Below, one piece after another: positions 122 through 13,544 of a DNA stretch of 13,883 nucleotides. Source of the DNA: a virus; UHGV virus genome UHGV-0131300; one strand, written 5' to 3'. Both the position numbers and the translations under genes were made by a program. How positions within the stretch are numbered: the stretch's first letter is position 1; each line of letters begins with the position of its first letter. The notes beneath the pieces were generated by a model. It saw only the letters and a program-made list of their open reading frames with translations. It was not told where the DNA came from and did not search any database.

Positions 122-158
122 GCTATCAGTAAAAATCACCAAGCAGCAAAAAACCACA

Positions 159-185
159 AAGCCCGCGAAATGTCGGGCTTTTTTG
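159..185 (+). terminator. Rho-independent terminator of the upstream chromosomal gene
   Basis: Stem aagcccg (159..165) / cgggctt (174..180), 8-nt loop, then a T-run to 184. Confidence 0.7.
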
Positions 186-309: not shown

Positions 310-1569
310 ATGCCAAAACTCACAGATATGCAGATCCGCGCATGGATAAAGGCGGGAGACAGATTTGATGGCAAGGCAGACGGCAACGGCCTTTATATTT
401 GCTACCCCAAAAACTACACAGCCCCGTTCTGGCGATTCCGCTATAAGCTCGCAGGAAAGCAGCGGGCTATGGTTATAGGCTCTTACTCCGAACTGTCACT
501 ATCAAAAGCCAGAGAAACAGCAAAAGAGCTGTCAGCCAGAGTTGCTCTTGGCTATGACGTAGCAGCAGAGAAACAGGAACGAAAAGCTGAAGCACTGGCA
601 AAAATGGAGGCTGAGAAAAACGCCATGCGTGTTTCAGATCTGGCCTCCGAATACTTCGAGCGCCAGATACTTCCGAGATGGAAACATCCCGATATCCTTC
701 GCCGGAGAATTGATAAGGATATTAACCCCTGCATTGGGCATATGAAGGTAGAGGACGTTAAGCCACGCCACATTGACGACATGTTGAAAGGTATCGTTGA
801 CCGAGGAGCACCAACGATAGCAACAGATGTATTACGCTGGACACGCCGTATCTTTGACTACGGGATAAAACGCCACGCTCTGGAGATAAACCCTTGTTCA
901 GCGTTTGAAGTATCTGATGCTGGTGGTAAAGAGGTTTCCCGCGACCGTTGGCTAACTCGCGATGAGCTTATCAGGCTATTCGAGGCTATGCGCACCGCAA
1001 AAGGATTCAGCCGCCAGAACGAACTGACATTTAAGCTATTGCTGGCACTATGCGTTCGTAAGATGGAGTTATGCGCCGCACGATGGGAAGAGTTTGATTT
1101 AGATGGTGCGGTATGGCATTTGCCGGAAGAACGCAGCAAAAACGGAGACCCTATTGATATACCTCTACCTTCCCCAGCCGTTGAATGGTTGAGAGAGCTA
1201 CACACCTTTTCATGTAATAGCGCATGGGTGCTTCCAGCCAGGAAGATGCAAAACAGAATGATCCCACATATTCAGGAAAGCACTTTGCCCGTAGCACTGG
1301 CTAAGGTTCGCGCCGAAATGCCGGATGTGCCTAATTTCACGATTCACGACTTCCGACGCACCGCACGTACTCATTTAGCAGCGTTGGGTGTTGATCCTGT
1401 CGTGGCGGAACGATGCCTCAATCATCGCATTAAGGGCGTAGAGGGGATTTATAACCGCCATCAGTATTTTGATGAGCGTAAAGCAGCACTGGCACAGTGG
1501 GCTGATCTGCTGGTGGCACTGGAAAGCGGAAAAGACTACAACGTAACGCCTCTCAGAAGGGCGAACTAA
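310..1569 (+). CDS. int: Tyrosine site-specific integrase, P4-like family
   Basis: N-terminal arm-binding-like region (LTDMQIRAW...GLYICYPKNYTAPFWRFRYKLAGKQRAMVIGSY). C-terminal catalytic motifs HDFRRTARTHL (HxxR) and LNHRIKGVEGIYNRHQY (catalytic Tyr). Start moved to ATG 310 in the 226..1569 frame, because the first 28 codons overlap the repeat/promoter region. Confidence 0.9.
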   Translation: MPKLTDMQIRAWIKAGDRFDGKADGNGLYICYPKNYTAPFWRFRYKLAGKQRAMVIGSYSELSLSKARETAKELSARVALGYDVAAEKQERKAEALAKMEAEKNAMRVSDLASEYFERQILPRWKHPDILRRRIDKDINPCIGHMKVEDVKPRHIDDMLKGIVDRGAPTIATDVLRWTRRIFDYGIKRHALEINPCSAFEVSDAGGKEVSRDRWLTRDELIRLFEAMRTAKGFSRQNELTFKLLLALCVRKMELCAARWEEFDLDGAVWHLPEERSKNGDPIDIPLPSPAVEWLRELHTFSCNSAWVLPARKMQNRMIPHIQESTLPVALAKVRAEMPDVPNFTIHDFRRTARTHLAALGVDPVVAERCLNHRIKGVEGIYNRHQYFDERKAALAQWADLLVALESGKDYNVTPLRRAN

Positions 1570-1664
1570 CTGAATAGATTGAGCCTAGCTCGACGGGGCG
1601 AAAAGCGGGAAGCCTTACCGCCTGGCTCAATCACAAAATAAGGCGCAGCGTAAAAGGTGACGCA

Positions 1665-2630
1665 ATGAACGACTCTCATGAAACAACAGTGGTGCATAGA
1701 AATTTATGGCAGGAATCAGGTATTCCACCTTTGGACTACTGCACGATAGAGCGAGCATCAAAATTATTAAATTGTGAAATTGATGATATATGGCATTGGA
1801 AAGATAGACTACATATAGACTTTTATGTCTATGCTGACTTTCTTGATTTCATTGAATCTGATGCCACCATCCACTTCAAAAAAGATGCTAATTTTATAAC
1901 TGATTTATTACTTATGTACCCAGAAGAAGTAAGGTTTACATTTCCTTTTCTTATTACCAGCGCAAGCAACGAAGTTTATATCCCAGCATCTGAAAGCGGT
2001 GCTTATGAGCTATTTTATGCACATAAACCACTGACAGTTGAAGACAGCGACAATAAAAATGTTTTTGAACAAATTGGCAAAAACTCTTTTATTGTAAGAA
2101 AATCAATTGCATGTGGATTGTTGCGTGTACGCGGTAGAACAACACGACATTATCATTCACAAGAATGTGGAGAACCATATGTGCGACTTGAAGCAACATT
2201 TGATTGTGATCTATATAAATTCAAAATGCAAAGTTCCCAAATTCACCTGAGTAGCCTGTCAGATAAAAACATTTATATAACAAAGGCTGATTTAGAATAC
2301 CTTCATGACGCAAAGGTTAATGGAAGTTTTGACGCAGCTAAGAGCAAAAAACGATACGAAATGGCGGTAGAACAGGAACTAATACCTGAAATAAAAAATA
2401 GCAACCATAATGCCGAGAGACATGCTGAAAACAGGGAAAAACTTTTCAAATCTGCAATATATCTTTTGTCAAAGTATCCTGATGAATGCCGTGGCAAAAA
2501 GAAAGAAATAAGCCCTGAGAAGTGGCGGGATTGCATAGTGGCTCATAAAGACGAAATTCCACCGTTAGCAATCACAAATGAAGATGTGATTTTGAGACAC
2601 TTACGTGCTGCCGCCAACGGTAAGGGGTAG
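1665..2630 (+). CDS. Hypothetical protein, AT-rich orphan cargo gene between int and alpA
   Basis: 321-aa ORF with an SD-like aaggtg upstream and its own intrinsic terminator. Visibly AT-rich and rich in Lys/Asn/Ile/Tyr codons compared with its neighbours. No motif I can assign with confidence. Confidence 0.7.
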   Translation: MNDSHETTVVHRNLWQESGIPPLDYCTIERASKLLNCEIDDIWHWKDRLHIDFYVYADFLDFIESDATIHFKKDANFITDLLLMYPEEVRFTFPFLITSASNEVYIPASESGAYELFYAHKPLTVEDSDNKNVFEQIGKNSFIVRKSIACGLLRVRGRTTRHYHSQECGEPYVRLEATFDCDLYKFKMQSSQIHLSSLSDKNIYITKADLEYLHDAKVNGSFDAAKSKKRYEMAVEQELIPEIKNSNHNAERHAENREKLFKSAIYLLSKYPDECRGKKKEISPEKWRDCIVAHKDEIPPLAITNEDVILRHLRAAANGKG

Positions 2631-2645
2631 AGTAGCTAACTATTC

Positions 2646-2675
2646 AGGCACAGTATCATTACTGTGCCTTTTTAT
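2646..2675 (+). terminator. Rho-independent terminator after the AT-rich ORF
   Basis: aggcacagt (2646..2654) / actgtgcct (2661..2669) stem, followed by ttttta. Confidence 0.7.
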
Positions 2676-2695: not shown

Positions 2696-2743
2696 CTTCC
2701 TCCCGTAACGAAGCAACAACTATCGCTAAGAGGTTACGGGAAG
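2696..2743 (+). promoter_or_regulatory. Imperfect inverted repeat upstream of alpA, overlapping the region between its SD and start codon
   Basis: cttccTcccgtaac (2696..2709) pairs with gttacgggaag (2733..2743). A TGTACA motif lies at 2686..2691. Confidence 0.4.
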
Positions 2744-2744
2744 C

Positions 2745-2948
2745 ATGAACACCGACACTATTCCTACAAAAGGCTATATCAGACGCTTCCGCCTGGCTGA
2801 ATTGCTGGGCGTTAGTGTATCCACCATCGACCGTAAAGTAAGAAACGGTTCACTACCACGTCCGGTAAAGCTGGGAGAAAAAATAACTGCGTTTGATGCG
2901 GTTGAGATTCACAACTGGCTGGCAGAACGCCGCGGGAAGGTGGCCTGA
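2745..2948 (+). CDS. alpA: AlpA-family DNA-binding regulator / excisionase-like protein
   Basis: 67 aa with the pattern FRLAELLGVSVSTIDRKVRNGSLPRPVKLGEKITAFDAVEIHNWL, typical of AlpA/Xis HTH proteins; sits immediately after the int module. Confidence 0.8.
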   Translation: MNTDTIPTKGYIRRFRLAELLGVSVSTIDRKVRNGSLPRPVKLGEKITAFDAVEIHNWLAERRGKVA

Positions 2949-4400: not shown

Positions 4401-4840
4401 ACCTGCCGCCCAGAAAGAAGCCTTTAATCTGGCTGGCCTGTTAGCAAATGTTAACCCTTACAACCTGTCAAAACCTGACATTCATCGCCGCGCCGTTGCG
4501 ACAAATGACGACATTTTAGAGGCGTTTTCTGGGCTGAGAATTGGGCTGCGAATCCTAATAAATCCTAAGTTTTTTTCGCATTTCGTGACCAGTACGCGCG
4601 AGAAAGTTTTTTCTGACAACACTACGCCAGTGGAAAATTATTCCGCTGTCTTGAGTTTTCGGAGCATTACGCGCCCGTCTGGGGAGTTTTCGGACTATGT
4701 AAAAAAGGGCAGTACCTACAGGTCAGACCACCAGCAGGAAAATCAGTGTTATAGTCCCAGTGTTGCTGCAAAATCAGCAACCGGGCGTGGAAACCCGAAC
4801 ACACTCAGGGCGACACAGACGCCGAAAGCGTCTTTTTTTG
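4401..4840 (+). ncRNA. Candidate non-coding regulatory RNA or leader region ending in an intrinsic terminator
   Basis: No credible coding signal despite an open frame. Direct repeat gagttttcgga at 4653..4663 and 4684..4694; hairpin gttgctg/cagcaac at 4762..4781; terminator gacgc-cgaaa-gcgtc plus T7 at 4818..4839. Confidence 0.35.
4818..4839 (+). terminator. Rho-independent terminator inside the non-coding region
   Basis: gacgc (4818..4822), loop cgaaa, gcgtc (4828..4832), then ttttttt (4833..4839). Confidence 0.75.
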
Positions 4841-5028
4841 TGTCCGTTCACTACGCACATCAAATCAGCGGCCTCGTCCGTACTGTATCTATGGTGGCGT
4901 TAGTGGGGCTACGTTCGCGTAGGCCGGTTTCCTTTGTGTCCGGTATTTCCACCCCTGCTAACGTCACCGCCATTTCAGAGCGTGGAAACTCAGGCGGTGA
5001 CTCCTTAAACACAAAGGAGGCTGCCATC

Positions 5029-9232: not shown

Positions 9233-9478
9233 ATCCCTACTGCCCTACTAAAAACGAGACGAGGCCAGACGTAGCAAGGCTTTAAACTAGGTAGGGATAT
9301 ATATTTTTATCCCTACTTATCCCTACATATCCCTACCAAATAAAACAGGCAGTAAAATGCCGTTGAAGTGATTTAGTAGGGATAAGTAGGGTTATGTAGG
9401 GCAACAAAATTGAATGCCTACCAGTCTGAAAGCCTTGCCATTCGTGGCCTGAGCCAGTTAGTAGGGATTGGTAGGGAT
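9233..9478. repeat. Iteron array (putative replication origin): about 10 copies of GTAGGGAT / ATCCCTAC at 10-bp phasing around an AT-rich spacer
   Basis: atccctac at 9233..9240, 9309..9316, 9319..9326, 9329..9336. gtagggat-type copies at 9291..9298, 9376..9383, 9386..9393, 9396..9403, 9461..9468, 9471..9478. Lies immediately downstream of the primase gene. Confidence 0.75.
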
Positions 9479-9530
9479 ATTACACCCCCAAAAAGATTCT
9501 ATGGGGGGTAGCTTAAAACGAAGGTGGGCA

Positions 9531-10274: not shown

Positions 10275-10916
10275 ATGAGTACGCAACCCATCATTATTGA
10301 GTTCGGCAGCTATCGCTGGCCCAGACATCTTGCAATACATGAAGCAGGTCATGCGATAGCCGCATGGTTTTTCGGCATACAGGAGGTAGAAATTGCGTTA
10401 TCGGGTAATAACCGAGTGGCAAAAACCTACCTTAGCGGCGATGTTGATGAATGTGGAGCTGTCGCGGTATGGCACGCCAACTATCCACGGAATGTGGCTG
10501 AGGTTAAGTCTTACACCCTCTCGAATGATGACACCAGGTTACGTCTGATAGACCAGGTATGCCGGGCTATGGTTATCTCTCTGGCTGGTATCGTCGCGCA
10601 ATCACGCTATACGGAGGATGATATTGACGCACTGATGGAAACGTCCGGGAAAGCAGATATGAAAAATGTTCGTGATTTATCCGAGGTATACCGGGTAGCT
10701 GGTGGGGAGGACGCCGATATACAGCGAATATCCCTTTCCCGCGCTCAGGCGCTGATTACCCTGAAATGGTGGGATGTTATCGCGCTGGCGAAAATACTGG
10801 AGAACCGTAACCATATGCCCGCCAGAAACTTCCAGCGCATTATGGGCGATATCGACAAGCCTGTACCAAAGCCTCTGACGCTGGCTGAACTGGATGAATT
10901 GGTGGGTGAAGAATGA
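10275..10916 (+). CDS. HExxH zinc metallopeptidase-like protein (FtsH/M41-like HEAGHA motif), no AAA+ domain
   Basis: Motif HLAIHEAGHAIAAW near the N-terminus matches the FtsH protease-domain signature HEAGHA. gaggg SD before ATG 10275 (track start 10197 rejected). The protein is only 213 aa. Confidence 0.65.
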   Translation: MSTQPIIIEFGSYRWPRHLAIHEAGHAIAAWFFGIQEVEIALSGNNRVAKTYLSGDVDECGAVAVWHANYPRNVAEVKSYTLSNDDTRLRLIDQVCRAMVISLAGIVAQSRYTEDDIDALMETSGKADMKNVRDLSEVYRVAGGEDADIQRISLSRAQALITLKWWDVIALAKILENRNHMPARNFQRIMGDIDKPVPKPLTLAELDELVGEE

Positions 10917-13424: not shown

Positions 13425-13544
13425 GGCTGGCAGGTTCCTTATTGTGGGATAGCGGTATCATACAATAAGGCGCAAAAGATAAGAGGCCAGAACAGCAAGC
13501 ATGAGAGCATAAAATGAGCAGCCAAAGACAGCACCTCAAAATAC

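Follow-up and report, generated by a model that had tools for sequence, protein, structure and literature searches.

Gram-negative phage-inducible chromosomal islands (PICIs) and EcCIMP1-like elements share a layout of four zones, named Integration, Bro, Replication, and Late (PMC10111431, PMC11773190, PMC13612085). The role of AlpA in these islands has been described, and the way in which helper phages switch on alpA was left open in the same work (PMC6092414). A passage in PMC11364771, citing Fillol-Salom 2022, places the immune genes that PICIs carry at the 5′ (int-proximal) end. Our literature search found no description of a phage sensor of Gram-negative PICIs. Here we analyze a gene at positions 1665..2630 (+ strand) of a 13,883-nucleotide stretch of DNA, UHGV virus genome UHGV-0131300; the whole stretch is called the window here. 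The gene lies between int and alpA of an island that we assign to the Gram-negative PICI type. Judged from sequence comparison, it is one allele of a large, uncharacterized family of satellite proteins of approximately 300 aa, carried in a single-gene int–alpA module. The module, made of a structured leader RNA, an open reading frame (ORF), and a terminator, is by the same evidence a property of one lineage of Gram-negative PICI-type satellites.

The 5′ accessory region of PICIs and the logic of Stl-like control were already known. Neither the protein family nor the leader–ORF–terminator platform was found described in the literature search, and a search by the accession of the protein, WP_001000004.1, found no paper. 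Compared with what the passage cited above says of the PICI 5′ accessory region, the present slot has the same place (cargo between int, at the left end, and the regulator), its cargo varies, and it is AT-rich. On the same comparison, it differs in being a fixed expression platform (RF02996 leader, start codon at a fixed distance, terminator) and in holding one gene of 216–368 codons, with no occupant that matches a known defence system. The hotspot of P4 sits on the other side of int, and the hotspots of P4 and P2 hold many known systems of varied size, whereas the present slot holds no known system. With the defence hotspots known from P4-like satellites and from P2 phages (Rousset et al. 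2022; PMC13586616), the slot shares conserved flanks and rapidly swapped, AT-rich cargo. Unlike the P4-like satellites, the present element has no psu, delta, or sid.

The int–alpA slot and its non-coding frame

The slot gene is a 321-aa ORF with an ATG start, listed as a 'hypothetical protein' in RefSeq, and a Shine–Dalgarno sequence (AAGGTG) lies 7 nt 5′ of its start. A preliminary description, made from the letters of the window alone, had placed the ORF between int (310..1569, +) and alpA (2745..2948, +), and its coordinates were confirmed, as were both neighbors with Pfam. The greater AT content claimed for it was also found. The GC content of the ORF is 0.369, with 0.29 at third codon positions, versus 0.498 and 0.49 for int; alpA-p143 has 0.48 and the remaining island 0.53.

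The ORF had been called an orphan, and this did not hold. A word-indexed search gave 48 relatives in Enterobacterales, and a full hidden Markov model (HMM) scan of 1.84 billion representatives gave at least 600 clusters at E values up to 0.001, nearly all of 270–350 aa. The query protein itself has no match in Pfam, NCBIfam, or PHROGs, and none among the PDB sequences at E up to 10. Pfam and PADLOC cover none of the 106 family members sampled, and searches of Pfam, NCBIfam, PHROGs, and PADLOC gave only noise. There are no homologues of the family in 50,697 phage genomes. The allele WP_001000004.1 is present in about 75–77 of 5,426 complete E. coli genomes.

Family members are found 5′ of alpA or of an HTH_17 gene in Intestinirhabdus, Pectobacterium, Tatumella, Symbiopectobacterium, Salmonella, Enterobacter, Cedecea, Klebsiella, and metagenomes. 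One locus (P0067) has the member upstream of a primase module instead of alpA. At a Pantoea locus (L008), no alpA was detected, the primase follows the family member, and the integrase is only 26% identical. On a metagenomic contig (L021), the member has no integrase nearby. In every context sampled, which covers E. coli and at least six other genera, the member lies directly upstream of alpA or of a primase module, usually right after int. The profile search of genome contigs gave five loci only, and the wider survey consists of IMG/VR loci found with the integrase. On the metagenomic contig (533–741 and 1845–2839), four CRISPR-DR4 repeats and a HicB-like gene closely precede an int-alpA RNA motif, the family member, and alpA, and there is no integrase in between. 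A distant member (23% identity over 94% of the query) was seen in a 21.8-kb circular record of Klebsiella pneumoniae (CP031371.2, 'plasmid' pKpvST101_4), where it is followed by alpA, an antirepressor, and DUF4222. This record is possibly an episomal or excised satellite that was deposited as a plasmid.

We compared the slot in two sets of loci. In the first, 11 related E. coli islands, there is one gene of 216–321 codons between int and alpA, and the genes are of different sequence types. The types comprise the present 321-aa allele; one of 316 aa (seen in L004), whose C-terminal domain is the same; one of 281 aa, in which this domain has diverged; one of 307 aa that shares only the N-terminus; one of 293 aa and marginal similarity; DUF6387 (283 aa); and one of 216 aa. 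At least seven sequence types thus occupy the slot, and all of the alleles have a low GC content (0.36–0.43). For the second set, we took 44 IMG/VR loci that have alpA and an integrase of at least 62% identity. A family member fills 28 of these slots, the 216-aa type seven, the 293-aa type four, and two further types the remaining five; none of the 44 is empty. The content was always one gene of 0.65–1.1 kb (216–368 codons), and a recognizable multi-gene defence system was never seen. Other slot types gave only noise in NCBIfam (five tested) and PADLOC (ten tested). Among the 5,426 E. coli genomes, the slot flanks were matched in 839, and 75 have this allele. Where the flanks could be joined, the distance between them was always 2.03–2.15 kb.

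The edges of the variable segment were located with blastn. The left edge is at 1668/1669, that is, at the start codon, in eight of the 11 islands and at 1550–1557 in the others. The right edge is at about 2702 or at 2747–2761. For the 316-aa type, the breakpoint is intragenic, at 2430, where the common C-terminal domain begins. One island (L011) has flanks up to 99% identical with an unrelated gene between them. The preliminary description had taken the int–alpA interval for a variable cargo slot, and this is borne out by unrelated coding sequences between 99%-identical flanks and by the at least seven sequence types in the slot. The identical 321-aa protein was also seen in a related island of E. 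coli 873.10 (NZ_CP061754.1, 1383431–1397108), whose backbone is 87.6% identical. That island is integrated between der and yfgJ, and its integrase matches that of the window at the 3′ end only. The presence of the same protein on this second backbone means that the cassette moves between satellite backbones. The sequence breakpoints show that alleles, unrelated protein types included, are exchanged by recombination at the conserved leader or start codon and at the alpA leader hairpin.

A common origin of the slot types was considered and found no significant support. The HMM of the C-terminal domain was not significant for the 293-, 216-, 218-, 233-, and 307-aa types and gave only short in-register 'K..W' matches. 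With hhalign, the family gave E=0.013 against the 293-aa type and E=0.33 against DUF6387. The look-alike C-termini of the slot types are therefore unproven as kinship. A DUF6387 protein (287 aa) lies directly upstream of the AlpA gene in ICEKp258.2 of K. pneumoniae, according to the gene table in PMC10763509. ICEKp258.2 is an unrelated genomic island, and DUF6387 is also an alternative occupant of the present slot. Together with the present family, at least two protein families therefore occur at the position of a protein of approximately 300 aa upstream of alpA. In the literature search, DUF6387 was listed in annotation tables only.

The prototype functional PICI, EcCICFT073, has an int–alpA gap of 365 nt with no gene within it. 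The corresponding interval of EcCIMP1 has a small gene only, reported to be approximately 10% of the size of UvrB (PMC11773190). Since EcCICFT073 lacks the slot gene, the gene is accessory. The preliminary description had reasoned that conservation of the gene at this position everywhere, with a housekeeping role, would speak against cargo. One half of this was found, as the family occupies the position in approximately 64% of the related elements and in other genera. The other half was not. The gene is replaceable and is absent from EcCICFT073, so that it looks accessory rather than housekeeping. The two surveys show the slot to be a dedicated, always-occupied single-gene accessory module that, judged from these genomes, is not needed by all PICIs.

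The slot is framed by structured elements on both sides. The Rfam int-alpA RNA motif RF02996 lies at 1578..1644 (+), with 60.6 bits versus a gathering score of 35.8. In about 35 loci, its end lies approximately 20 nt ahead of the start codon of the slot gene, regardless of the type of protein (L002, L003, L005–7, L011–13, L015–18, L021, and 22 IMG/VR loci). Loci in which int directly adjoins the slot gene (L004, L010, L014) do not have it, nor does EcCICFT073, which has no slot gene. Across 29 distinct sequences, pairing extends to 98.1% of the cells, with double changes at 11 of 20 pairs; shuffles and slid registers never came near these values. RF02996 is entered in Rfam as a small RNA (sRNA) gene, whereas here it stands at a fixed distance before a start codon. 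Both its fixed position and its absence where there is no slot gene are the behavior of a 5′ leader or intercistronic element, which suggests that it serves the slot gene as such rather than being a free sRNA. The slot thus gives the int-alpA RNA a likely job, that of the leader of a swappable gene. A second hairpin, GCGU/ACGC (1648–1651 with 1660–1663; 1648..1663, +), ends 1 nt before the ATG and holds the Shine–Dalgarno sequence AAGGUG in its loop. In alignment A5, three of its four pairs change on both sides, and 97.4% of the cells are paired. As the leader is conserved, the ATG is the left boundary of recombination. A stretch of 18 nt, ATCACAAAATAAGGCGCA (window 1630–1647), lies at the 3′ end of the leader motif and recurs with 89% identity at 13457–13474, near the right end of the island.

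On the 3′ side, an intrinsic terminator (2646..2674, +) stands between the slot gene, which it closes, and alpA. As the preliminary description had noted, there is a terminator after the ORF, consisting of a 10-bp stem (2646–2669) followed by the T-run TTTTTATTGTT. The region 2631–2760 folds far better than its shuffles (z=−4.1). The terminator had also been taken as a sign that the cassette was acquired independently, and this argument is not supported. By eye, a hairpin follows the stop codon in nearly all of the approximately 20 slot–alpA intervals that were printed. Such a hairpin therefore seems to belong to the design of the slot and is not a mark of separate acquisition. The terminator is followed by the alpA leader hairpin or inverted repeat, CCCGTAAC-N23-GTTACGGG (2702–2709 with 2733–2740; 2702..2740, +), which borders the Shine–Dalgarno sequence of alpA and marks the right boundary of the swapped cassette. 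Compensatory variants of it are present in other loci (CCCCTAAC/GTTAGGGG and CCTGTAAC/GTTACAGG). It may act as a hairpin in the control of translation or as a palindromic operator. No convincing sigma-70 promoter was called between 2670 and 2745. The short palindromes in this region, CATATATG and TGTACA, are indistinguishable from chance in AT-rich DNA.

Fold and evolution of the slot protein

The protein can be divided into four parts. Residues 18–57 (1716..1835, +) form the first part of a predicted winged helix-turn-helix of the MerR/Xis/AlpA kind, with a strand, two helices, and a strand. Residues 58–199 (1836..2261, +) form a β-rich domain that is apparently inserted in the wing; it is fast-evolving by alignments A1–A3 and by the ratio of nonsynonymous to synonymous differences (pN/pS). 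Residues 200–246 (2262..2402, +) comprise the return strand with a conserved 'DL-x-IT' motif, followed by helices and a linker. Residues 247–321 (2403..2627, +) are a strongly conserved helical C-terminal domain (ERHAxNRE...YPDECRG..KEISPEKW...ITNEDVILRHLR). In the alignments, the N-terminal part carries the family motif IPPLxYCxIxRAAxLLxCxxDDLxHWxxxGxIxLC. The middle part, approximately 140–170 residues, cannot be aligned between subfamilies apart from a 'GLW' motif. The 'DLxIT' motif and the linker after it are constant. The 75-residue C-terminal domain of this subfamily is 60–80% identical between genera.

By fold, the N-terminal module belongs to the winged helix-turn-helix class of the MerR/Xis/AlpA superfamily, with 56–66 residues that superpose at 2.2–3.4 Å. 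By sequence profile, it does not fall into HTH_17, MerR, or Phage_AlpA, the query having no Pfam match; HTH_17 matches one of 106 relatives (E=0.005). With hhalign, residues 18–57 align in register with residues 4–43 of the AlpA of the island, weakly (E=0.005, probability 7%). When the whole model was compared with the PDB by Foldseek, the best E value was 0.26, and the domain of residues 58–199 had no fold match. Two observations place the β-rich insert within the wing. Residues 25–57 alone are too short to account for the 56–66 superposed residues, and the conserved strand–helix 203–219 comes after the variable domain. We infer on these grounds that the variable β-rich domain is an insertion that appears to split the wing. 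The present protein would thus differ from MerR, Xis, and AlpA (HTH_17) by an apparent insertion of approximately 145 residues in the wing, and from MerR also by having no metal- or drug-binding C-terminal domain. The preliminary description had recognized no enzymatic motif. The model agrees, and shows a protein without a recognizable enzymatic domain and of a DNA-binding type as far as its predicted fold goes.

An Xis/AlpA-like fold beside int, with co-transcription with int being likely, would suit an accessory recombination-directionality or architectural factor for the integrase, acting like Xis and contacting Int through the C-terminal domain. The C-terminal domain is nevertheless 60% identical beside the 26%-identical integrase of Pantoea and is present without a nearby int on the metagenomic contig. 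An excisionase-type protein is already supplied by alpA, and unrelated proteins can substitute for the slot gene. We regard such a role as quite improbable.

Selection on the separate domains was estimated from five orthologues of the 321-aa allele. The pN/pS ratio is mostly 0.15–0.29 in the winged-helix part (one pair gave 0.48), 0.30–0.75 in the middle domain, and 0.05–0.18 in the C-terminal domain. The middle domain evolves three to five times faster than the modules that flank it and is completely different between alleles. For the C-terminal domain, synonymous sites are saturated between genera (pS 0.7–1.0), and pN is only 0.09–0.36. Its conservation is therefore at the level of the protein and is not due to a DNA signal or to recent transfer. 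Conservation at the DNA level was ruled out as its cause by the saturated synonymous sites. These ratios show strong purifying selection on the C-terminal domain and, as estimated from the orthologues, on the winged helix.

The pattern bears on a further reading, in which the protein is a transcription factor directed at the host or the helper and is carried as a moron, without sensing phages. Its effects would fall on the physiology or virulence of the host, or on gene expression in the helper, much as with PerC/ANR in related islands or CapR in PLE. Only folds of DNA-binding type were found in the protein, and PerC regulators that act on host genes occur in related islands (PMC11773190). Host regulation hardly explains the fast turnover of alleles and the fast-evolving domain that is not the DNA-binding one, and the recognition part is the conserved part. 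We consider this reading unlikely.

The preliminary description had also proposed a single-gene abortive-infection function and pointed to RGRTTRH as a weak HEPN-like motif. On this proposal, the protein would be a toxin with a HEPN-like RNase site. The single R-x5-H match exists, at residues 156–162 and not 157..163. It is not conserved: in the four closest homologues (57–72% identical), R156 is replaced by A, S, S, and H, and H162 reads H, N, T, and H. RGRTTRH follows a β strand and adjoins a loop of low model confidence (162–169; low predicted local distance difference test scores) instead of sitting in a helical HEPN core. A conserved R-x4–6-H motif and the all-α HEPN fold are thus both missing. 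We rejected the HEPN toxin, which is very improbable.

Candidate roles in phage recognition and regulation

The reading that we rank first, tentatively, takes the slot protein for a factor of phage recognition or interference that travels as swappable cargo. The ranking has three grounds. PICIs elsewhere complete their life cycle without the gene, proteins unrelated to its product take the place on the same backbone, and immune genes of PICIs are put at the 5′ end in the passage of PMC11364771 already mentioned. An anti-phage role is plausible from this genomic setting. EcCIMP1, a related island, has superinfection immunity, and no known defence system was detected in it (PMC11773190).

In the resting state, the slot gene would be co-transcribed with int, which is probable because the search of the 95-nt gap between int and the ORF gave no separate promoter. 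The terminator would keep transcription of int and the slot gene out of the alpA operon. The product would be a specificity factor for phage recognition or interference. Its variable middle domain might bind a component encoded by the phage, and the winged helix and the C-terminal domain would give an output at the level of DNA or transcription, or by way of a conserved partner. Its action would consist of binding, with neither catalysis nor toxicity involved, and the turnover of alleles would be driven by diversifying, frequency-dependent selection that phages impose.

Several points weigh against a role as recognition or interference cargo. No phenotype is known for the family. In PADLOC-DB 2.0 (5,027 models), the query matched only PDC-S31 (E=0.002, 15.6 bits), a match common to none of 105 relatives; beyond such isolated, chance-level matches, neither the protein nor these relatives have PADLOC homology, and ten other slot proteins tested had no PADLOC match. 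A generic defence hotspot is expected to hold known systems of varied size, whereas this slot always holds one gene of 0.65–1.1 kb. The fixed one-gene content fits a specialized role equally well, a regulatory one included. A satellite regulator would account at least equally well for two modules that resemble nucleic-acid-binding ones and for the constant adjacency to alpA.

Such a regulator could be the satellite's own phage sensor, comparable to Stl of the SaPIs or to MerR. The slot protein would bind DNA just 5′ of alpA and either repress the alpA operon or switch it on in the manner of MerR. The variable domain would bind a protein of the helper phage, and the allele would decide which phages induce the island. 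We hold this to be possible but doubtful. Stl and Rpr, the master repressors of the SaPIs and Gram-positive PICIs, likewise combine a DNA-binding domain with a highly divergent part, which in Stl recognizes phage proteins; they show great allelic diversity between islands, and they are located between int and the lytic operon. Homology to them beyond a generic helix-turn-helix was not seen in sequence or fold.

The adjacency to alpA speaks for a sensor, since it is constant even where int is only 26% identical or where none lies nearby. The winged helix is of the same class as those of AlpA, Xis, and MerR, and the DNA-binding and C-terminal parts are conserved while the middle is variable. None of the 44 slots is empty, the 30–60 nt between the terminator and the alpA hairpin travel with the cassette, and there is no known defence gene in the slot. 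A sensor would also supply the coupling between helper phage and alpA induction that the work of 2018 left open (PMC6092414). Other observations oppose it. EcCICFT073 and EcCIMP1 are helper-inducible without such a gene (PMC6092414, PMC11773190), so that, unlike what is expected of an Stl, the gene is not present in all functional islands of the class. An alpA backbone that is 99% identical takes alleles with divergent winged helices and also proteins without detectable similarity (DUF6387, the 216-aa type). The slot gene and alpA are both on the + strand with a terminator between them, whereas stl is transcribed divergently. The island already has P4-type RNA immunity (C4/isrK), and operator repeats could not be established.

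In its boldest form, the proposal is that a large Gram-negative PICI-type lineage has its missing phage sensor in this family, a MerR/Xis-like DNA-binding switch that would have arisen independently as a functional counterpart of SaPI Stl. The protein would be expressed from the int-alpA leader RNA, its hypervariable insert would bind a phage protein and in this way control the alpA operon, and the allele would set the range of helpers and targets. We would give this reading less than an even chance.

Whether as a sensor of PICIs or as a new class of non-enzymatic anti-phage factor, the family is a testable candidate. This status rests on the at least 600 clusters, the adjacency to alpA, the fold of DNA-binding type, and a variable domain that resembles the product of an arms race. 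The leader–ORF–terminator unit is a compact natural expression platform, and its alleles could serve as a source of phage-recognition domains, mined like a library. Should there be no phage phenotype, this would still be a widespread, unannotated family of satellite proteins that deserves a Pfam entry.

The host island

The 13.9-kb window is E. coli chromosome, with 100% identical copies in strains 0H26, ECONIH4, and others. The RefSeq flanking genes place the island between yicC and dinD; no direct repeats of 14 nt or more, as expected of att sites, were found at its ends. The integrase is a tyrosine integrase (Pfam Arm-DNA-bind_3, Phage_int_M, and Phage_integrase; RefSeq), and alpA encodes an AlpA/HTH_17 regulator (PF05930, Pfam) and is the first gene of a rightward operon. 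The gene order begins with int, the 321-aa ORF, alpA, and the gene of a 143-aa protein. It continues with an AntA antirepressor, DUF4222, an Ash/Icd-like ORF, and several small ORFs, after which come a P4-family primase–helicase, SSB, a pRiA4b-ORF3 protein, and others.

The preliminary description had called the element P4-like. Among the 20 proteins of the window, Pfam found no psu, sid, or delta domains, and the layout int–alpA–pri is that of PICIs. These three genes are co-oriented, there are no phage structural or lysis genes, and the arrangement matches the four-zone layout. Judged by its genes, the host element is a Gram-negative PICI-type satellite and not P4-like in the strict sense. 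Inside the Ash/Icd-like ORF (window 4749–4974), there are matches to the Rfam C4 antisense RNA (81 bits), to isrK (72 bits), and to c4-a1b1 targets. These matches indicate a P4-type CI RNA immunity, predicted in an element without psu, sid, and delta.

Three further features were noted. Just 3′ of the primase gene (window 9373–9405 and 9458–9480), there are clustered direct repeats that contain GTAGGG, which are probably iterons of the replication origin of the island. A 213-aa ORF at 10275–10913 has an HEAGH (HExxH) motif of the metalloprotease type, and its sole match is a weak, Peptidase_M50B-like one (E=0.009). The copy of the island in ECONIH4 (NZ_CP026399.1, 3301058–3316707), otherwise identical, is broken by the insertion of an IS1634-like ISSpu7 transposase.

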